In this document: positions 55,816 through 64,000 of the stretch, piece by piece
How positions within the stretch are numbered: position 1 is the first letter of the stretch
How the letters are laid out: every line of letters begins with the position of its first letter
Made by a program: the position numbers and the translations under genes
Source of the DNA: Elusimicrobiota bacterium
GTDB taxonomy: Bacteria > Elusimicrobiota > Elusimicrobia > UBA1565 > UBA9628
Direction of reading: 5' to 3'
Length of the DNA: 64,000 nucleotides
Assembly: GCA_035534315.1 (NCBI GenBank)
Contig: DATLSD010000059.1
Location: 5,369 to 69,368 of the forward strand
The notes under the pieces: model-generated
Databases searched by the model: none
Seen by the model: the letters and a program-made list of their open reading frames with translations, nothing else
What the model was told of the DNA's origin: nothing

Positions 55816-55946
55816 TTGCCGCGGCCGTCCGCGGCCGTCCCCAATCCCATCTTCGCATAGGTCTTAAGTCCCACCAGCCCTTGGGCCTATTGCCAGGCTC
55901 CGGCTGGAACTATCGACCCTATTTAGGGAAGCTCTTATATATCAGA

Positions 55947-55991
55947 ATAACGCCGGCTCGGACGCGCGAGCGCGCGTCCGCGTTATATTTT
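55947..55991 (+). terminator. GC-rich hairpin plus T-run: terminator of the TRL gene and/or leader structure of the M50-Hsp100 gene
   Basis: ATAACG/CGTTAT outer pairs flank the 10-bp palindrome CGGACGCGCG-AG-CGCGCGTCCG (55959-55980). ATTTT follows. It lies 25 nt upstream of ATG 56016. Confidence 0.45.
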
Positions 55992-56015
55992 GGACTAGAC
56001 AAGGATACCGGCTAC

Positions 56016-59000
56016 ATGGAGATTGCGTCGCGGCGCTTGGCGGTCAAAATTTTGGCGTTGGGGCTTTCATCCGCGCTCGTCCTGGTGTCTCCGGGGCTGG
56101 GCTGCTACGGCGCCCTGGCTGCTGGCTTCGAGGCTCCCGAGGCCGGAGCCGAGGCCCCCGCGAATTTTTCTCTTGCGCCGCTTTCCACTCTGAATAATGC
56201 CGTTTTGCCTGGGGGTGCGCCCCTGGGAAGCATCGGCGGCGTCAATATCCCCGAGTTGCTTTCCGGCCTTGAGCGCGCGCCGTCTCTGACTCCCGAGGAG
56301 GCAGACGTCCTTCGCGGCGTTGAGGCCGCGGGAACTTCCCAGGAGCGGGCCACGGTTGCCGTGGCGCGGCTGGCGGAACTCGCCGCGCGCGTCCGCGCGC
56401 AAGCCAACGCGCTGCCTGAACTGGCGCTTGGGGCGAAAAAGAGCGGCGACGCTCTCGGCTTTGAGCGCGCCGTCACCCAGGTGAGCGCCTACCGTAATTT
56501 CTTGAACGTCCCGAACCTGGAGAAATTGAACGCCGCCCAAAAGAGCTTGGCCGGCATGAAGACGGCGCAGGCGCAAGGTTTGGTGGCCCAGGCGCGGAGG
56601 CTTTGGGGCAAGCCGGCGCCAGCGATCGTCAAAGCCGGCGCCGATGTCGATGCGGCGCGGGGTCTTCCGTCCGGGCTTCTTGAGCCTTCAGGCGCTTCCG
56701 GCGTTCAGCGCGGCACGGAGATCCCGGCGCCGCGGCATGCGTCGGCTGTCGTGAGTTTGGCGCGAAAAATTTCCTCCGTCGGCCCGGGCCGCTGGCGCCG
56801 GCTCTTAAGCGCGGCGGCCGTCATCGGCGGCGCCGCGGCTCTCATCCTCACTCACGGCGCGGCGTTAAGCGTCAACTCGGTTCTTTACGGCGCGGCGCTG
56901 ATGTCCGGCATTCTTCTCCATGAGACGGGCCACCTCTACTTGGCCCGCCGCCTGGGAGACGACACGGCCCGGCGTTTTAGCCAGGGGAGCCTCAACCCCT
57001 TCAAGCACGTCGATCCCTGGGGCACCGTCGTGCTGCCCTTCTTGAGCTTGGTCGCAAGCTCGACTTTCCTCCATGTTCCGTTGCTGCTGGGCTGGGCCAA
57101 GCCCATCCCGGTCGATTACAACAAGCTGGCCGACCCCAAGCGAGACGCGGCCAAGGTCGCCTTCGCTGGTCCCGCGGCGAACGCGGCGGCGGCGGCATTG
57201 GCGTGGGGCGCCCGCTTGGCGCTGGTCTCGACCGGAGTCATCGTCGCCGGAGGCTTGGCGGCGTCCGCGCTCCAAGCCGCGGCCGTGGTCAATCTGGCTC
57301 TGGCCGCGTTCAATCTCTTGGCGCCGCTGCCCCACGCCGACGGGTTCAAGATCGGCATCCGCTGGTGGCCGACCCGCGTCTACCGTTCCGCGTGGGCGCG
57401 CAATCCGGAACTGCCCAACGGAGCCTATCAAGGCATTTTCCGGCGGCTCTACGAAGGCCCGGCCAATCCGCTGGCTTGGCTTTCGCGCCACGGCTTTTCT
57501 CCGCGCCGCGTCCAGCGCCTGACTTGGGGGCTCGGCTTGGCGGCGTTTTCGGCCGCTTCCTTGGCCGGCTATTTCTGGCTGGGCCTGCCGGTGGTGGGCA
57601 TCGCCTTGGCTTGCAGCCAGGCGTACTACTGCATCTACGAAAAGGTACAGAACGAAGAGGCGGTTAAGTCCCTGCGCGGCATCCTGGGCGGCTGGGCCCG
57701 CTGGGCGGCGGATTTGGCGGAAAAGGGCGAGCTGCGCTCGGAAGTCGACAGCGAGCGCTTCGAGAACATCATGGCCGAGGTGCTGGACGGCGACTTGATG
57801 GACGAGGTTATCGGCTCCGAGGGCTTCGATTCGCTTTCCAACGACGAGAAATGGAGCCGTTTCCAGGACGCGTTTATCGGCCGCGCCGCCGAGGCCCTGC
57901 ACGCGGATCCGCGCGGATTGCCGGACGACGACGTGCAAAGCATCCGCCAGAAACTTTTTGAAAGCCAGGACGGCCAGGCCAGGCTCGCGGAGCTGCGCCG
58001 CTGGATGGAGCAGCGATGGGACGGCCGCGACATCTGGTCGCGTTGGCGCACGGAAAAACGCAAAGGCCAGGACGGTCGGGCCGGGGGTTCGCAGGGCGAG
58101 CAAGCCGTCAAGAAAGCCGGAACGATGCTGGGCCTCATCGCCGTGGCGGCGCTGGGCGGCCTCGCTTTGCCGCATATTCTGGGCGCGCACGTCGCGTTGA
58201 GCGCCATGGGTCCGCTGGGCCTTTTGCTGGGCTCCATCGAGGACTCCTCAACGCCGCCTGCCGCGGCCGCGCGCCTGCCGCAAAAGCCTTTCCTCGAAGC
58301 CGCCGAAGATCCGGCCGTGGATCTCTCGCGCGAGGACAAAAAGTTTTTGACGGCCATGTTCGGCCGGCGCGCGATCGAGGAGATTGTTCCCGACGAGACT
58401 CCCGTCATCGGAAGGCTCGAGGAAATGAACAAGATGGTTCCCGTCATCGCCGCTCCTTCCGGCGACGCCAACGGCGTGGTGCTGGTGGGCAAGGCGGGCG
58501 TGGGCAAGACCGCGGTTCTCCGGAAAGTGATCCAGGCGGTCGGTATCTCTCGCGGGCAGGAGGGCGAGGGCAGCACCTTCCGCCTCTCCACCTTGGACGA
58601 ACGCTATTACTTGTCGCTGGATCCCACCCAAATCCTGGACCAAATGGCGCAGGATAATTCAACGGCGGTGCTTTCGAGCCTGCTCCGCATCCTGGCTAAA
58701 TTCAACGTTTTGCAGCGCGGCCGGGGCGCCAAGGTCGTCTTGGTCGTCGACGAGGTGCACACCCTTTTCCAGGACGCGCAATACGGCCCCCGCATAAAGA
58801 ATCTGATCAAAAAACCTCTGGAGCGCGGCGATGTCGCCATCGTGGGCGGCACCACCAAAGGGGAGTACGACAAGTACATCAGGCCCGACGAGGCCATCAA
58901 GCGCCGCTTGAAGCCCGTCGAGGTGCCGGAATATGACGAGGCGCAGTCCCTGCGCGCCTTGCAGGAGTCGCGGTCCTACTATGAGCGGCGCTACGGGGTG

Positions 59001-61328
59001 AAAATCGAACCCTCCGCGCTCAAGGCCGCGGCCGAGAATTCCAAGGTTGATCAGGAAATCTTTCTGCCGGGCCGAGCCTTCCATTATCTCATCGAGGCGC
59101 TGCGGGTCGCCGATTTCCAGAGCCGCCGCGATCGCCTGTCCTTGGCCATCCAGGACAAGATGAGCGAACTGGAGTACGCGTTCAAGCGCTTGGAAGAAGA
59201 GAAGGCCAAACTGTTCCAGGCCGAACCCGGGGCCGTCGCCGAAGAAGAGGCGTCCCAAGCGCCCAGCGTCATCGACTTGGAGAACGCGGCGGCGCGGCTG
59301 GTCGAGGACCTGGTGGCGCTCTATCGCCAGCGCCAGGCGATTCCTTCCGGCGGCGTCCCGACCGTTGATGAACATCTGGTCAACGACAAGATCGTCGAGG
59401 AAACCGGCGTCGCCACCAACCAGCTGACTTTGGGCCGCGAGGACATGCATAAGTACGTCGAGATGGAGCAGTCCCTAAACAAGATCGTGGTGGGCCAGGA
59501 AGAGGCGGTCCACGTGATTTCCGACGCCGTGCGCCGCAGCAAGTCCGGCATGCACGACTCCGAGGACGAGCCTATCGGCGTCTTTTTGCTGACCGGCCCC
59601 ACCGGCACGGGCAAGACCTATTTCGCCAAGAAGCTCGCGGACTTCCTCTTCGGCAGCGAGAACGCCATGATTCGCCTCGACATGTCGGAGTACATGCAGC
59701 CGCACGAGGTCGCCAAGATGACGGGCGCGCCTCCGGGCTACGTGGGCTTCGAGCAGGGCGGGACGCTGACCGAGGCGGTCCGCAAGCACCCCTACAGCGT
59801 GGTGCTTTTCGACGAAATTGAGAAGGCCAACCCGGCCGCGTGGCTTATTCTGCTGCAGGTTTTGGCCGACGGCCGCCTGACCGACGGCCACGGGCGGACC
59901 GTGAGCTTCAAGAACACTATCGTGCTCATGAGCTCCAACGTGGGCATGATGAGCCTCGATTTGGGGCCCTACGAAAAAGCTTACGCGGTGTTGAAGGCGC
60001 AGTGGGACGCGTCGGAGGGCGACGAAGCCCGGCGCGCCGAGGTGGAGGCTCAGCTTTCCGAGTTCGGCGTCCGGATGGCGCGCGAAATCCGGGAGAAGGC
60101 CGTCGCCGCGACCAACGAGGCCATGACCGGGATGTTCCCGCCTGAGTTCCGCGGGCGCCTGCAGTACGATCCCATCGTCTTTAATCCCATGACCATGGCG
60201 ATGATGGAAAAAATCGCGCCGCTGGAATTGGAAAAGGTGCGTCGCAAGGTCGGGCAGAGGGGAAACGAGCTGGAATGGACTCCCGAGGTCGTCAAGCTTC
60301 TCGTTCATGAGGGCTACAGCGTGGACAAAGGCGCGCGGCCGTTGCGCAATGCCATCAAGAACCTGGTGGAGTCGCCCATTTCCCGCGAAATCCTGGAATC
60401 CGCCGCGAAAGGCGGAGCCCAGCCCGGCCCCAAGCGTATCCGCTTAAGCGTGCAAAAGGGCAAAATCAACGTGGCCGTGGAGCCTTTGCCCGTCAAGCCC
60501 GCGCTCAAGGCTCCTCCCGCCGAGGCGATGAGCCGCGAGATATTCGATCGCCTGGTGACTCTGGTGGAGCAGGCGGTCGAGGAAAACGCGGAGATGGGCC
60601 TGACCCGGGAAATCCTCGATCGGTGGATTCTGGATGAAATCAAGAGCCATCCCGCGGAGGAAGACGCAAAGCCTGCGGCCCCCGCGACGGTCGCCGAGGG
60701 AGCCGCTGAGAAAACTCAGGGAACAGCCATTGCGGCTCCCGCCGCCCCGGCGCCATCGCAGGAGGCTTCTTTGCTGGCTCAGAATGAGGCGCCTGGGTTG
60801 GGCGCGCAAGACCCGATAATCACCCAGGGCGATCAGGAAACCGCCAAGGAATTCCGGACCGGCGTCGCGCGGCAAATCAAGGAAGCGCTCGAGCGCGAGC
60901 ATTATCCCGAAAGCGTCCAGGAGGCCCTGCTGCGATCCGTGCCCTCGGAAGCCGAGCCCTATGAAGGATGGCTCAAGGTATTTTTGCGCCAAGCCGGCGT
61001 CGGCCGCGAGGGAGGGCTTCAAGTCCGCTACCGGATTAATCCGCAATCGGCCGTGGTCTCGATTCACGCCAGCGGCCCCTTGAGCGAATCGGAGGCGGCG
61101 TTTCTGCGCGCGCATTTCACCGGCCGCGTCCCGGCCAGCGCCCAGGAGTCGCTCGATCGGGCGGAAGGCGGCAACATTCTCAAGCAGGACAGCTCGAGCC
61201 GCCTCTGTTTCGAGCTCTACCGCATCCTTTCCGCGATTCCCGGGGCGCGCCTGGGGTATTCAACCGGCGCTTCCGGAACGGATTATTGGCTCGAACTTCC
61301 CAATCCCGCGGCGCATGAATCGAGATAG
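56016..61328 (+). CDS. giant fusion protein: N-terminal Ala-rich region + M50 (site-2) metalloprotease membrane domain + two-ring Clp/Hsp100 AAA+ ATPase + C-terminal extension
   Basis: One uninterrupted ORF. ATG 56016 with an AAGGA RBS is preferred over the TTG at 55881. Motifs: HETGH at 56919-56933; NLALAAFNLLAPLPHADG at 57291-57344; Walker A GKAGVGKT at 58488-58511; Walker A GPTGTGKT at 59595-59618; Walker B boxes VVLVVDEVH and VVLFDEIEKA; sensor-2 GARPLRN. Confidence 0.85.
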   Translation: MEIASRRLAVKILALGLSSALVLVSPGLGCYGALAAGFEAPEAGAEAPANFSLAPLSTLNNAVLPGGAPLGSIGGVNIPELLSGLERAPSLTPEEADVLRGVEAAGTSQERATVAVARLAELAARVRAQANALPELALGAKKSGDALGFERAVTQVSAYRNFLNVPNLEKLNAAQKSLAGMKTAQAQGLVAQARRLWGKPAPAIVKAGADVDAARGLPSGLLEPSGASGVQRGTEIPAPRHASAVVSLARKISSVGPGRWRRLLSAAAVIGGAAALILTHGAALSVNSVLYGAALMSGILLHETGHLYLARRLGDDTARRFSQGSLNPFKHVDPWGTVVLPFLSLVASSTFLHVPLLLGWAKPIPVDYNKLADPKRDAAKVAFAGPAANAAAAALAWGARLALVSTGVIVAGGLAASALQAAAVVNLALAAFNLLAPLPHADGFKIGIRWWPTRVYRSAWARNPELPNGAYQGIFRRLYEGPANPLAWLSRHGFSPRRVQRLTWGLGLAAFSAASLAGYFWLGLPVVGIALACSQAYYCIYEKVQNEEAVKSLRGILGGWARWAADLAEKGELRSEVDSERFENIMAEVLDGDLMDEVIGSEGFDSLSNDEKWSRFQDAFIGRAAEALHADPRGLPDDDVQSIRQKLFESQDGQARLAELRRWMEQRWDGRDIWSRWRTEKRKGQDGRAGGSQGEQAVKKAGTMLGLIAVAALGGLALPHILGAHVALSAMGPLGLLLGSIEDSSTPPAAAARLPQKPFLEAAEDPAVDLSREDKKFLTAMFGRRAIEEIVPDETPVIGRLEEMNKMVPVIAAPSGDANGVVLVGKAGVGKTAVLRKVIQAVGISRGQEGEGSTFRLSTLDERYYLSLDPTQILDQMAQDNSTAVLSSLLRILAKFNVLQRGRGAKVVLVVDEVHTLFQDAQYGPRIKNLIKKPLERGDVAIVGGTTKGEYDKYIRPDEAIKRRLKPVEVPEYDEAQSLRALQESRSYYERRYGVKIEPSALKAAAENSKVDQEIFLPGRAFHYLIEALRVADFQSRRDRLSLAIQDKMSELEYAFKRLEEEKAKLFQAEPGAVAEEEASQAPSVIDLENAAARLVEDLVALYRQRQAIPSGGVPTVDEHLVNDKIVEETGVATNQLTLGREDMHKYVEMEQSLNKIVVGQEEAVHVISDAVRRSKSGMHDSEDEPIGVFLLTGPTGTGKTYFAKKLADFLFGSENAMIRLDMSEYMQPHEVAKMTGAPPGYVGFEQGGTLTEAVRKHPYSVVLFDEIEKANPAAWLILLQVLADGRLTDGHGRTVSFKNTIVLMSSNVGMMSLDLGPYEKAYAVLKAQWDASEGDEARRAEVEAQLSEFGVRMAREIREKAVAATNEAMTGMFPPEFRGRLQYDPIVFNPMTMAMMEKIAPLELEKVRRKVGQRGNELEWTPEVVKLLVHEGYSVDKGARPLRNAIKNLVESPISREILESAAKGGAQPGPKRIRLSVQKGKINVAVEPLPVKPALKAPPAEAMSREIFDRLVTLVEQAVEENAEMGLTREILDRWILDEIKSHPAEEDAKPAAPATVAEGAAEKTQGTAIAAPAAPAPSQEASLLAQNEAPGLGAQDPIITQGDQETAKEFRTGVARQIKEALEREHYPESVQEALLRSVPSEAEPYEGWLKVFLRQAGVGREGGLQVRYRINPQSAVVSIHASGPLSESEAAFLRAHFTGRVPASAQESLDRAEGGNILKQDSSSRLCFELYRILSAIPGARLGYSTGASGTDYWLELPNPAAHESR

Positions 61329-64000
61329 CCGGGCAGTTCGGGCTCTCTCGCTGCTTTTGAGCGCGGGCCTCCTGCTGGCGTCGCCGGGCGCGGGCGTTTA
61401 CGCCGCCTTGGCCGCGGAAGTCCTCCCGGCCGAAGGTCCTTCCGTGGAGGGGTCCGCTCCAGCCTTGATTTCGCCCGAAATCCTTTCCCAAGCCCGGGGG
61501 ATGGTGTTCAACGGGCTGGATGCCGGCGATCTTTTGGAGGGCCTCGCTCGGCCGAGCCAGCTCTCGCCGGAACTCGCGCAGGCGCTGGCTCCGGTGGTCA
61601 GTGCCGCGGCAGGGAACGCGCCGGAGGCCGAAAGCGCCCGCCGGAAAGCGTTGGAGGCTTTGACGCGCAAAGCCGCGCAGGAGCGGCGCCGCGCGGATAA
61701 GATACTGGCTTCGGAGCCGGAGGGAATCGCGAAAGCGAACGCGTCCGGCCTGGAGAAGGCTTTAAGCCGTCTTAAGCCTTACGAGCCGTTGCTGGACGCG
61801 TCGCGGCGGGAAAAAATCGCGGTGCTGGAGCGGAGGATCACTCTATATAAGGAAGAACGGATTAAAATGGGAGTCAGCCAAGCCGCTGAAGCCTGGGGCG
61901 CCCGCGCGGCCCTGGCGCAGGCGGTTTCCATCGGCGCGGCGCCGCCCAAAATAGCGCTTGCGGATTCTTTGACGCCGCCCAAGACCTTGCCCGGACGGCT
62001 GCGGGTTTACGGCGCGGAGCGCGGCGCTCTCGGGTCAGCCCTTCTTAAGCTCAATATGCCGGTGGCTCCGGCCTATTTGCGCTCCGGAGGAGCCTTCATC
62101 GATTTTAAGAACGCGGAGGAGGCCGCCAAGGCGGCCGTGGCTTTGGCGGGGCTTGATATCGTCTCTTCGGTGGCGGTTCATCCGGACGTCGTATCTTATT
62201 TTCCGAAGACGTCCGCTTCAAAAGCGCCGGCGGCGGATGAGAACGCGCCGGTCCAATCCGTGCCGCCGATCTTGATGGCGGACCGGCTCACGGCCAAGGA
62301 AGAGCTTTCCGGCAATCGCTTGGACGCGCACTTTGGCTCCCAGGAAGCGCTCGCTCGCTGGGGAGGTAAAAATGCCGATGAGCCTCGCCTCTATTTTTTC
62401 ATGTCGAGCCGCGAAGCGGCCATCGAGAGAGCGCTGGAGCTGCTTGCTGATCCCAATCTAACCCGATTGGAGGTTCCAGCCGCCTTGAAGCCGCTCCTTG
62501 ATCGGCGCCTCGATTTAGCTCCGTCGGAGCCGATGCCTCTTTCCGAAGAACTCCTGCGCCGCTTGCGGGTTCGGCCCGGCATGGCGGAAGCAAGGAGCGT
62601 CAACGTCCATTTCGCCGATCCTTTGTCGGCCGATTCAATCCGGTCGTTTCTGGAGCGTTTCGGCGTTGAGAAGCCGGCGATCAACGTGGGCGAATACATC
62701 GCCACGCCGGATTTATTCTCCTCTCTGGAGGATGCGGCGGAAAAAACCATCGCGCTCCTGCGCCAAAAGGAAATCGCCTGCATCCGGGTCGCCAAGTCGC
62801 TGGCGGACTTGATCGCGGAGCGCCTGCGCGGCCCGCAAGGATCTCCCGGAGAAGCGGCGCAGGGCGAAGCCTCGGACGCGGTCCTGCCCATGCCGGAGAA
62901 TTTTTCCGTCGGCTGGAACGGCCCTGGGAAGAGCGTTGAAATCGTCAACGGGAACGCGGCGAGCGAAACAGCGGCTTTGCAGTCCTACGGGGAGGACTCC
63001 GGGCGTTCCGGCTTGCCGCGCTTCCAGCGCGTAGCCGCGGCCCAAGCCTACCGCGAGGCGATTTCCATCGTCAAGTCCTTAATCGAAGAGGGGCGGACCA
63101 TCGACGTAAATTGGCGGATGGGATCCGGGCGCATCGTGATCCGGGTCCAGGCGTCGGCGCTCACTCTTTCCGCGGACGCCGTTCGCTATCTCAAGGCCGC
63201 CTTCGCGCCGCAAACCGTGGTGGGGCATAATTTCAGGGCCGGCGGCGGGCGGCTTTATTACGCGGCCGGGGAATCTCCCGCCGTCATCTGGATCGAAATT
63301 CCCGGAGGAGGCGACTCGTCTTCTCCAGCGTCCGCCCCGGAGGGCCATGCTCCGGAACCGCAGGCGCAGCCCGCCGCCGAAACTTTTTCACCGGCGTCCA
63401 AGGTGGCGGCCTTCGACGCGGCCCTCCACCCGCGGGCTTCCGCCGGACGCGTGTTCGTCTCGGCCGCTTCCGGCGCCGAGGCGCGCGCGGCCTTAAGCGC
63501 GGCGCTTGAAGCCGAAGGGTTCGGAGGCGTGCCGGTGATGACGATGCGGCCCGGCGCCGCGTCCTCATCATACCAAGCCTTCGTGACCATGACGAGCGCG
63601 CGGGACGCGGCGCGGTTGGCTCTAGCCGCGGCCGCGTCCGACGCGATTTCAGCCGTGACCGTGCATCCGGAGGCTTATGCCCGAGTCGTTAACCTCAGTT
63701 TGGACGGCGATATCCAGGCGTCCCGGGCTCCAGCCGATGCGCAAGGCGTGCCGTCAGCCTCCGCAGGACTTCAAACTTCATTCCTTTCTCCTGAGGACGC
63801 GGACAAGATTTCCGAATCCGCGGATATAACGGCGGAAAACACCATTTGGATTTGGGGCGACGATATTTCAAAAAAGAGGGAAGTAGAGGATTTGGCGAGC
63901 CGCGCGGGCCTCTCCATTTTCCTGCACGGAACATCCAATGTCAGCCCGCGGTTTACTCTCAAGGGCTCGGCTCCGGACACGGCCGCTGTCATGCGCGTCG
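61315..64000 (+). CDS. large secreted or membrane-anchored repeat protein (partial, over 895 codons, runs off the right edge); not in the ORF track
   Basis: ATG 61315 overlaps the stop of the giant gene by 14 nt. I read the frame by eye as open to position 64000, which is consistent with no plus-strand ORF being listed after 61328. The N-terminus MNRDSRAVRALSLLLSAGLLLASPGAGVYAALAA is signal-like. The translation is protein-like throughout. Confidence 0.75.
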   Translation, partial: MNRDSRAVRALSLLLSAGLLLASPGAGVYAALAAEVLPAEGPSVEGSAPALISPEILSQARGMVFNGLDAGDLLEGLARPSQLSPELAQALAPVVSAAAGNAPEAESARRKALEALTRKAAQERRRADKILASEPEGIAKANASGLEKALSRLKPYEPLLDASRREKIAVLERRITLYKEERIKMGVSQAAEAWGARAALAQAVSIGAAPPKIALADSLTPPKTLPGRLRVYGAERGALGSALLKLNMPVAPAYLRSGGAFIDFKNAEEAAKAAVALAGLDIVSSVAVHPDVVSYFPKTSASKAPAADENAPVQSVPPILMADRLTAKEELSGNRLDAHFGSQEALARWGGKNADEPRLYFFMSSREAAIERALELLADPNLTRLEVPAALKPLLDRRLDLAPSEPMPLSEELLRRLRVRPGMAEARSVNVHFADPLSADSIRSFLERFGVEKPAINVGEYIATPDLFSSLEDAAEKTIALLRQKEIACIRVAKSLADLIAERLRGPQGSPGEAAQGEASDAVLPMPENFSVGWNGPGKSVEIVNGNAASETAALQSYGEDSGRSGLPRFQRVAAAQAYREAISIVKSLIEEGRTIDVNWRMGSGRIVIRVQASALTLSADAVRYLKAAFAPQTVVGHNFRAGGGRLYYAAGESPAVIWIEIPGGGDSSSPASAPEGHAPEPQAQPAAETFSPASKVAAFDAALHPRASAGRVFVSAASGAEARAALSAALEAEGFGGVPVMTMRPGAASSSYQAFVTMTSARDAARLALAAAASDAISAVTVHPEAYARVVNLSLDGDIQASRAPADAQGVPSASAGLQTSFLSPEDADKISESADITAENTIWIWGDDISKKREVEDLASRAGLSIFLHGTSNVSPRFTLKGSAPDTAAVMRV

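Follow-up and report, generated by a model that had tools for sequence, protein, structure and literature searches.

Does the stretch of Elusimicrobiota DNA analysed here (64,000 nucleotides of contig DATLSD010000059.1, GenBank assembly GCA_035534315.1, positions 5,369 to 69,368; hereafter the window) encode a protein in which an intramembrane M50 protease and a Clp/Hsp100 unfoldase share one chain, and what would such a protein do? A first-pass annotation had placed a single uninterrupted reading frame of about 1,770 codons at 56016-61328, and reading of the sequence bore this out. The open reading frame (ORF) runs without interruption over 55881..61328 on the forward strand, to which all window coordinates below refer, with 1,815 codons counted from a TTG at 55881 and 1,770 from an ATG at 56016. 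Since an AAGGA ribosome-binding site lies ~9 nt upstream of this ATG and the orthologues P0002 and P0003 begin at the same Met, the ATG is the likely start, which would give a protein of 1,770 residues. Residues were numbered from ATG 56016, and numbers counted from TTG 55881 were reduced by 45; after this subtraction, all of the motifs quoted earlier (HETGH, NLALAAFNLLAPLPHADG, the Walker motifs and GARPLRN) were found at their places.

When the translated ORF was searched against Pfam, the three families anticipated for the fusion, Peptidase_M50, AAA_2 and ClpB_D2-small, were all found. Peptidase_M50 (PF02163) scored 29.7 bits, above the curated cut-off of 27.2, while AAA_2 scored 174 bits and ClpB_D2-small 58 bits. 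Generic AAA models matched across the first nucleotide-binding domain (NBD1), and the match to AAA_lid_9 was weak, at 17.6 bits and under the 22.8 cut-off. No M41 or S16 protease domain was matched by Pfam in the window protein. As far as sequence can tell, the protein was confirmed to be one intact chain joining an M50/site-2 protease (S2P) to a two-module Clp/Hsp100 ATPase.

The same combination was recovered elsewhere. A whole-protein search returned seven relatives with the full architecture, 32-89% identical and 1,763-3,042 residues long, all of which carry PF02163, AAA_2 and ClpB_D2-small; where the source gives them a name, it is only "AAA family ATPase [Elusimicrobiota bacterium]". The closest, P0002, is 89% identical over the full length and was present on 7 contigs from JGI, ENA and NCBI assemblies, with the same gene order as the window. 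The claim that the M50 and Hsp100 parts lie on one polypeptide was upheld in every good-quality family member. The earlier statement that no described enzyme has this fusion also stood: the source annotations say only "AAA family ATPase", and no published description of a fusion of M50 with Hsp100, or with any AAA+ protein, was found in the literature searched, which was thin on subscription journals.

To delimit the family, a profile of the M50-plus-linker region (A2; aa 250-700) was scored against 1.84 billion representative proteins. The whole 425-position module was matched by ~19 clusters at 50% identity, and the next tier below the family consisted of thousands of stand-alone proteins of ~200-230 residues that match the protease core only, at E ~1e-38. 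Both nucleotide-binding modules were visible in 13 of the 25 family sequences, that is, in all that are long enough, and 3 more reach the first Walker A motif before ending. All 13 carry two Walker A motifs, a PPGYVG (or PPSYVG) pore loop and GARP. Among GTDB contigs, with one genome per species, the full module occurred in ~45 genomes, some with two copies; nearly all are labelled Elusimicrobiota or Elusimicrobia and a few just "bacterium". The family, made up of proteins of 1,800-3,000 aa, appears to be restricted to this phylum and conserved only in its uncultivated members.

In the case of the protease part, the core was assigned to aa 282-445 (56859..57350) from PF02163, profile matches and invariant residues. 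Statements on invariant columns, here and below, rest on eight aligned proteins that share as little as 31% identity. HETGH (aa 302-306; 56919-56933) lies in a hydrophobic helix of aa 282-312, and NLALAAFNLLAPLPHADG (aa 426-443; 57291-57344) includes Asp442 as the third zinc ligand; H302, E303, H306 and D442 are invariant. In a later transmembrane helix, FNLLAPLPHADG corresponds to the second M50 motif (NxxPxxxLDG type), with F432, N433, P437, L438, P439, D442 and G443 invariant, and the window clade has HADG where other clades read QLDG. The SxNP, GT, KP.D.N and GP..N signatures of the small S2P class are likewise invariant. Across the window protein and its homologues, PF02163 scores ranged from 29.7 to 33.2 bits. 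Against the PDB, the A2 profile matched mjS2P (3b4r, E=2.5e-6) and also an Aquifex RseP-type protease (9j82) and SpoIVFB (8vjm).

A profile of the M50 core alone (A4) found ~220-residue proteins named "site-2 protease family protein / Zn-dependent protease" at E ~1e-43 and 37-51% identity, and five stand-alone proteins from the A2 search scored 43-64 bits on PF02163. This stand-alone class is the closest relative of the protease part and has the motifs SLNPxxHxDPxGT and GWAKPxPVD in common with it. Its members consist of the protease core alone, whereas in the window protein this core is accompanied by an extra N-terminal helix with its domain, by two hairpins, by a helical domain and by the ATPase. 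We know of no functional characterisation of the class. On these motifs and profiles, the protease part is a bona fide M50 of the small stand-alone class, and it is apparently catalytically competent, as predicted from its conserved residues.

The ATPase part consists of two modules. NBD1 with its lid (aa 796-1070; 58401..59225) was delimited by Pfam, alignment to ClpB (6oax) and invariant columns. It carries a GKAGVGKT Walker A motif (825-832), VVLVVDEVH (907-915) with Walker B D912/E913, sensor-1 T946/T947 and arginine fingers R963/R964. Walker A (G825-T832), D912, T946/T947 and R963/R964 are invariant, and Glu913 is replaced by Asp in P0006. A short coiled-coil middle region follows (aa 1071-1150; 59226..59465). 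It was judged to be of ClpC-like length because the alignment is contiguous to ClpC 180-785 but split on ClpB. NBD2 with D2-small (aa 1151-1466; 59466..60413) was assigned from AAA_2, ClpB_D2-small, invariant columns and the ClpB alignment. Its motifs are GPTGTGKT (Walker A, 1194-1201), the GAPPGYVG pore loop (1237-1244), VVLFDEIEKA (1262-1271) with Walker B D1266/E1267, sensor-1 N1308, the arginine finger R1381 and the sensor-2 GARP (1439-1442; GARPLRN from 1439). G1194-T1201, GAPPGYVG including the pore-loop Tyr, D1266/E1267, N1308, R1381 and R1441 within GARP are all invariant.

The Hsp100 unit had been called complete. This holds for the two ATPase modules but not for NBD1 as a translocating ring, as the pore-loop-1 tyrosine is missing from it: LDQMAQDNSTAV is aligned opposite AGAKYRGEFEER of ClpB 6oax (KYRGEFE), and the family consensus has no aromatic residue there. 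NBD2 is likely the motor and NBD1 an assembly or regulatory ring, judging from these motifs. A helical insertion in NBD2 between SNVG (1307-1310) and FPPEF (1375-1379) is ~30 aa longer than in ClpB. We take this site to be the position of the ClpP-docking loop in ClpA/ClpC. The tripeptide [LIV]-G-[FL] is the ClpP-docking signature of ClpA, ClpC and ClpX, and it was not found when the insertion was read. The Clp_N repeat domain had no Pfam match in the window protein, in which the membrane region and a 55-aa linker precede NBD1. The best solved relatives of the ATPase part were ClpB and ClpC (~1e-93). Among NCBIfam models, ClpB, ClpV, ClpA, ClpK and ClpG scored 300-387 bits, all far under their equivalog cut-offs; the ClpB equivalog TIGR03346 reached 387 bits against a cut-off of 1232. 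By these scores, the ATPase is Hsp100-like and not an orthologue of ClpB, ClpA, ClpC or ClpV.

How the two parts are placed relative to the membrane was assessed from hydropathy, AlphaFold2 (AF2) models and loop charges. Five elements were distinguished in the protease region, namely, A (258-280), B (282-312, with HExxH), C (334-366), D (374-405, with GPxxN) and E (412-435, then D442). Helix A (56787..56855) is preceded by GPGRWRR. In mjS2P and SpoIVFB, a membrane re-entrant loop lies between transmembrane segments 2 and 3 before HExxH, and the zinc site is accessible to water from the cytoplasmic side (PMC11486902). The segment of aa 334-366 between the HExxH and GPxxN helices is placed where this re-entrant loop would be expected, and the loop-charge parity would fit a three-helix core with the HExxH and LDG helices parallel; the segment carries GWAKPIPVD (aa 334-367, within 56859..57350) and is followed by the GPxxN helix.

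After E comes a basic loop with an invariant YEGP (Y479, E480, G481, P482; aa 446-495; 57351..57500), which is predicted to be cytoplasmic. The two extra hydrophobic hairpins listed by the first-pass annotation are present at aa ~496-541 and 703-741. The first, F/G (57501..57638), was recognised by hydropathy and ends in the conserved family motif CS(Y/Q)(D/A)YYC, and its AF2 helices are broken at the conserved Pro525. A helical domain of ~150 aa follows (aa 542-700; 57639..58115; predicted local distance difference test, pLDDT, 76-93). It is probably cytoplasmic. It is also specific to the family, with no Pfam match and with matches in the A2 search that were confined to this family. Weak matches of A2 positions 339-371 (~aa 590-625) to the C-terminal region of Shigella IpaH E3 ligases (E 0.04-0.9) are probably a chance likeness of helical segments. 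The second hairpin, H/I (58122..58238), was recognised by hydropathy, and a linker of ~55 aa (58239..58400) then leads to NBD1 in place of a Clp N-domain.

Among 18 family members, the mean number of lysines and arginines was 0.0 in loops A-B, D-E and F-G, and 2.0 before A, 2.3 in B-C, 4.3 in C-D, 7.9 in E-F and 2.9 after G. According to these charges and the positive-inside rule, A would run in-to-out and B out-to-in, C would be re-entrant from the cytoplasmic side, and D, E, F and G would run in-to-out, out-to-in, in-to-out and out-to-in, respectively, as in mjS2P and SpoIVFB. Hairpin H/I is missing from P0007 but not from P0008, a close relative of P0007, and none of the members has a hydrophobic segment beyond it. 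Because it is dispensable in P0007 and followed by no later hydrophobic segment, H/I would cross the membrane an even number of times, and thus the helical domain of aa 542-700, both ATPase modules and everything C-terminal to them would be cytoplasmic. We infer that the zinc site opens toward the cytoplasm, the canonical S2P orientation, on the same side as the ATPase.

The C-terminal ~300 residues had been described as lacking a recognised motif. As for Pfam this stood, and the N-domain, the post-M50 region and the C-terminus had no usable match in Pfam or NCBIfam; the last 170 aa, however, have a degenerate histidine-kinase-like fold. The C-terminal extension (aa 1467-1600; 60414..60815) takes in the last part of the Clp fold, a helical stretch that is conserved, and an Ala/Pro linker of low complexity, read from sequence without a Pfam match. 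The domain beyond it (aa 1601-1770; 60816..61325) shows a GHKL-like fold without ATP-binding boxes by AF2, Foldseek and alignment (A3). Its AF2 model had a pLDDT of 75.9 and a predicted template-modelling (TM) score of 0.74. All of the top 50 Foldseek hits in the PDB were kinase CA/GHKL-type domains or the related ChpT phosphotransferase, mostly histidine kinases with RetS included, at moderate strength (probability 0.80-1.00, E ~1e-3 to 2e-2, TM-score ~0.3-0.4). ChpT and RetS are relatives deficient in ATP boxes. In the window protein, the N, G1 (DxGxG) and G2 (GxGLG) box positions read FLRQA, ASGPLS and DSSSRL, and HATPase_c had no Pfam match in the domain. The model points to a pseudo-kinase domain in the C-terminal 170 aa. 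The candidate that the C-terminal 300 aa form a protease chamber was rejected on account of the kinase-like fold.

The N-terminus of the protein is shared with a neighbour. A signal-peptide-like hydrophobic helix with SPGxGxYxALAA (aa 5-35; 56028..56120) was recognised by hydropathy, the motif being conserved within one subfamily as well as in the partner encoded downstream. It resembles a Sec signal peptide, with a basic n-region, an h-region of 12-17 residues and an AxA-like end. It is followed by an Ala-rich N-domain (aa 36-255; 56121..56780) that is paralogous, by BLASTP, to the N-terminus of the downstream gene product. Two subfamilies were distinguished by their N-terminal ends, the SPGxGxYxALAA type and the AAQ type. 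When the window and all fetched loci (~20 kb per genome) were scanned for SPGxxxYxA, only family members and the partner were found, with no sign of a wider sorting signal. In the N-domain of several homologues, the motif 'GPRWV' is repeated, with the final copy directly ahead of helix A.

The partner gene (61315..64000, running off the window) is translationally coupled, its ATG overlapping the fusion-gene stop by 14 nt. An orthologue of 1,493 aa (L001 13279-17760) has no Pfam annotation. The first ~200 residues of the partner, with the hydrophobic helix (region 61330-61420) and SPGxGxYxALAA among them, are a paralogue of the fusion-protein N-terminus (E=5e-11; 200 aa aligned at 31% identity), and the partner has no further membrane segment. 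Its middle has ~100-residue repeats like those of giant homologues by eye, which a Pfam scan of the partner did not confirm, and over its final ~400 residues it shows homology to the C-terminal tails of the giants P0004 (E=1.8e-34), P0021, P0005 and P0007. The C-terminal domain of the fusion protein gave no significant BLASTP match to the partner, and a visual likeness between the two was unconfirmed.

These giant homologues have 2,500-3,000 residues, with several hundred to ~1,000 aa of prodomain-like repeats inserted between the last hairpin and NBD1. The repeats of P0006 occupy the interval from hairpin H/I to NBD1; for one of them, Pfam gave a match to the Fervidolysin N-terminal prodomain (PF22148) at 24.3 bits, over a cut-off of 21. 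Multiple ~100-residue repeats, up to ~ten by eye, that end in 'V..V.V.P' were seen in P0006 (aa 640-1660), P0007, P0008 and P0012-P0022. The window lineage is a two-gene version of one 2,500-3,000-residue polypeptide found elsewhere, and the partner looks as if it arose when a gene split recently and the N-terminal module was copied in the process. Because the giant forms carry the partner's modules contiguous with their cytoplasmic ATPase, a cytoplasmic location is the simplest for the partner as well; its shared N-terminal helix is thus argued to be a membrane anchor of unusual topology and not an export signal.

What such a protein would do was considered next to the geometry of its parts. 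Hsp100 proteins are hexamers, and in the ClpB, Hsp104 and ClpA structures the substrate enters at the NBD1 face. As NBD1 begins only ~55 residues past the last membrane helix, the entry port would face the membrane and the S2P domains. The first-pass annotation had left the mechanism between feeding of substrates into the protease and extraction of cleaved membrane proteins; with the entry face pointing at the membrane, extraction is favoured and feeding disfavoured. In the reading preferred here, which we give about an even chance of being right, the S2P would clip transmembrane segments and the Hsp100 ring would extract and unfold the fragment. The AAA+ modules would assemble a hexameric ring, with the NBD1 entry face close to the membrane, where the six S2P domains would form a collar. 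These domains would cut substrate proteins within their transmembrane segments, after which the ring would seize the end exposed to the cytoplasm, and ATP would drive the fragment out of the membrane and its unfolding. The prodomain-like repeats, the pseudo-kinase domain and the helical-repeat-like tail would serve as substrate- or adaptor-binding and regulatory modules, partly supplied in trans by the partner gene.

Several points weigh against this clip-and-extract reading. Hexamer formation, proteolysis and substrates are all inferred. The lack of the NBD1 pore-loop-1 tyrosine means that only one ring can be assumed to translocate. Since repeats of several hundred to ~1,000 aa part the membrane from NBD1 in the giant homologues, apposition of ring and membrane would not be family-wide. 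P0025, a distant member, reads HEMAQ in place of HExxH. The signal-like N-terminus, which would put the N-domain outside, conflicts with helix A and the RWRR preceding it, which would put it inside. The AF2 model of the membrane part (aa 250-700), a multi-domain region, was moderate (pLDDT 66.6), and Foldseek against the PDB returned no meaningful match; for a model of this quality the blank is taken as uninformative and not as evidence against M50. The gene context gives no pointer to substrates either: the P0004 and P0006 loci have no genes in common with the window, except for a NUDIX hydrolase gene near P0004.

At one locus only, ~6 kb upstream of P0004 (L085 1154-3178), genes for an ECF sigma factor and a zf-HC2 anti-sigma factor were observed together with one that is MucB/RseB-like. 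The cluster is probably coincidental, though it fits the S2P theme.

Of the other functions considered, the one that survives best is a cis-acting tethered unfoldase or signalling device, which we consider unlikely. Here, the M50 domain would cut the protein's own membrane segment, or the N-terminal helix shared by protein and partner, and so release or activate a soluble Clp/pseudo-kinase/tail module, with no broad set of substrates. The helix with its helix-breaking SPG motif is common to the fusion protein and the partner, and this motif is limited to these two proteins within the loci examined; the odd topology and the C-terminal kinase-like fold, which is typical of signalling proteins, fit as well. 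However, no cleavage product is known, the 'AAQ'-type subfamily keeps the entire architecture without the SPG motif, and the fully conserved translocation motifs of NBD2 suggest polypeptide substrates.

Feeding, in which the ring would unfold cytoplasmic or membrane proteins and push them to the M50 domain for degradation in the manner of a compartmental AAA+ protease, is improbable. The known fused AAA+ proteases, FtsH and Lon, all pass unfolded chains to their protease domain (PMC7593790), and the S2P zinc site is open to the cytoplasm, which would suit such delivery, but S2P active sites take extended membrane segments laterally and have no degradation chamber (PMC11486902). Moreover, the protease is N-terminal to NBD1, that is, on the entry side of an Hsp100 ring, where feeding would need the NBD2 side; the NBD2 exit side instead carries the flexibly linked pseudo-kinase domain.

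An envelope biogenesis or secretion motor has little chance of being the answer. It would act on exported proteins with the shared N-terminal signal, for instance as a signal-peptide peptidase with ATPase that is dedicated to the giant partner. RseP-type S2Ps clear signal peptides, the N-termini resemble Sec signal peptides with AxA-type sites, and the partner gene is translationally coupled. Against this, the partner tail is homologous to a region that lies C-terminal to the cytoplasmic ATPase in the giants, and the partner, otherwise without a membrane segment, would be cytoplasmic.

The remaining rival, that a chimeric assembly join or an unseen frameshift merged two separate genes, has virtually no probability left: although the locus is broken into several ORFs in three long-read genomes (L007, L012, L037), these breaks are indel errors, with out-of-frame Arg-rich translation inside conserved motifs and 'AWIEY|LQNVKLNDGKS' restored by a one-base shift, and the refuting condition named by the first-pass annotation, a join or hidden frameshift between the M50 and AAA parts, is excluded by conservation of the uninterrupted fusion, which was found in assemblies made independently (JGI, ENA, NCBI) and in relatives of 32-89% identity.

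In the same three cases (genomes CBDIQC010000001.1 and CP096137.1; single-contig or complete, long-read), the indel frameshifts within this gene yield truncated database proteins, such as P0012 ending in '...AWIEYCRT', so that gene calls there understate the protein size. A natural split of the M50 and Clp parts in L007, L012 and L037 was rejected accordingly, as an artefact of long-read assemblies.

The clip-and-extract reading has counterparts among known systems. In the RseP/RasP pathway, an M50 cut near the cytoplasmic face is likewise followed by the action of a Clp unfoldase on the released fragment; RseP releases the cytoplasmic domain of RseA/MucA, which is then degraded by ClpXP (PMC7593790). 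The catalytic motifs and the predicted orientation are the same in the window protein, the S2P of which has no PDZ domain. Whereas RseP and ClpXP are separate proteins, and ClpX is a single ring that delivers the substrate to ClpP, the window protein is one chain with two modules and no ClpP-docking tripeptide. With ClpB/ClpC it has in common the two nucleotide-binding modules, the lid, a short coiled coil, D2-small and all NBD2 motifs. Unlike them, it is membrane-embedded, without a Clp N-domain and without the NBD1 pore-loop tyrosine, and it has a longer insertion at the ClpP-loop site. Like FtsH, it has an N-terminal membrane anchor and unites an ATPase with a zinc HExxH protease on a single chain; the entry face of its AAA+ ring would likewise look at the membrane, and it would work on membrane proteins. 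However, the AAA module of FtsH is single, and its M41 protease forms a soluble chamber on the exit side, whereas the window protein has an intramembrane M50 on the entry side and an Hsp100-type ATPase.

The RHBDL4-p97 system of endoplasmic reticulum-associated degradation (ERAD) depends on ubiquitin. It resembles the window protein in the physical link between an intramembrane protease and a double-ring AAA+ ATPase, with clipped membrane or lumenal proteins dislocated to the cytoplasm; cleavage by RHBDL4 is coupled to p97-driven dislocation via a p97-binding motif (PMC9437926). It differs in being eukaryotic, in using a serine rhomboid and in its non-covalent coupling through that motif, and the protease parts are not homologous. 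As for SpoIVFB, its CBS domain binds ATP. SpoIVFB is likewise an S2P with a cytoplasmic C-terminal domain (PMC11486902), but this domain only senses ATP and is not a motor.

By its sequence features, the window protein is outside ClpB, ClpA/ClpC and FtsH/Lon, while its parts come from known families (M50, Clp/Hsp100-like). What appears to be new is the covalent fusion of an intramembrane protease with an unfoldase; ATP-dependent membrane proteolysis and regulated intramembrane proteolysis coupled to Clp are known. Somewhat short of an even chance is given to the broader proposal that the family is a new class of ATP-dependent membrane protease, in which a hexameric Hsp100 motor and six S2P domains would combine cut and extraction in one machine, as a single-chain bacterial counterpart of the rhomboid-p97 ERAD module with its own adaptor modules. 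Cooperation between protease and unfoldase is known only between separate proteins (RseP/ClpXP, RHBDL4/p97), which makes the hand-over difficult to investigate. A covalent fusion that occurs in nature is Rosetta-stone evidence for a coupling that is ancient and selectable. It would offer a single-polypeptide structural system for the passage of a cleaved transmembrane segment to a translocating ring, and would allow one to ask whether force replaces site-1 trimming and what an NBD1 without the pore loop does. The ~220-aa stand-alone S2Ps, a class that is very large and uncharacterised, also gain a first functional context from it. Specialists would find the architecture surprising, and it would make the protease-to-unfoldase hand-over directly testable.

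Some minor features complete the picture. Ahead of ATG 56016, a GC-rich hairpin, a T-rich run and then the AAGGA site were read in 55957..56015. The hairpin is formed by the GC-rich inverted repeat GGACGCGCGAGCGCGCGTCC, which together with the T-rich run covers 55957-55990, ~30 nt 5' of the start codon. It might serve the SWIB/TRL genes upstream as their terminator, or act as a leader hairpin. PADLOC gave generic AAA matches only, and a known anti-phage defence system was therefore rejected. Two other M50 proteins were observed. P0119 (2,218 aa) is an unrelated giant polytopic protein with a small-S2P-type M50 domain near its C-terminus (residues 1711-1902). P0011 (1,049 aa) is another kind of fusion, in which a signal-like N-terminus, a low-complexity region, an M50 domain of the same class and more membrane helices are joined to a subtilase (PF00082).

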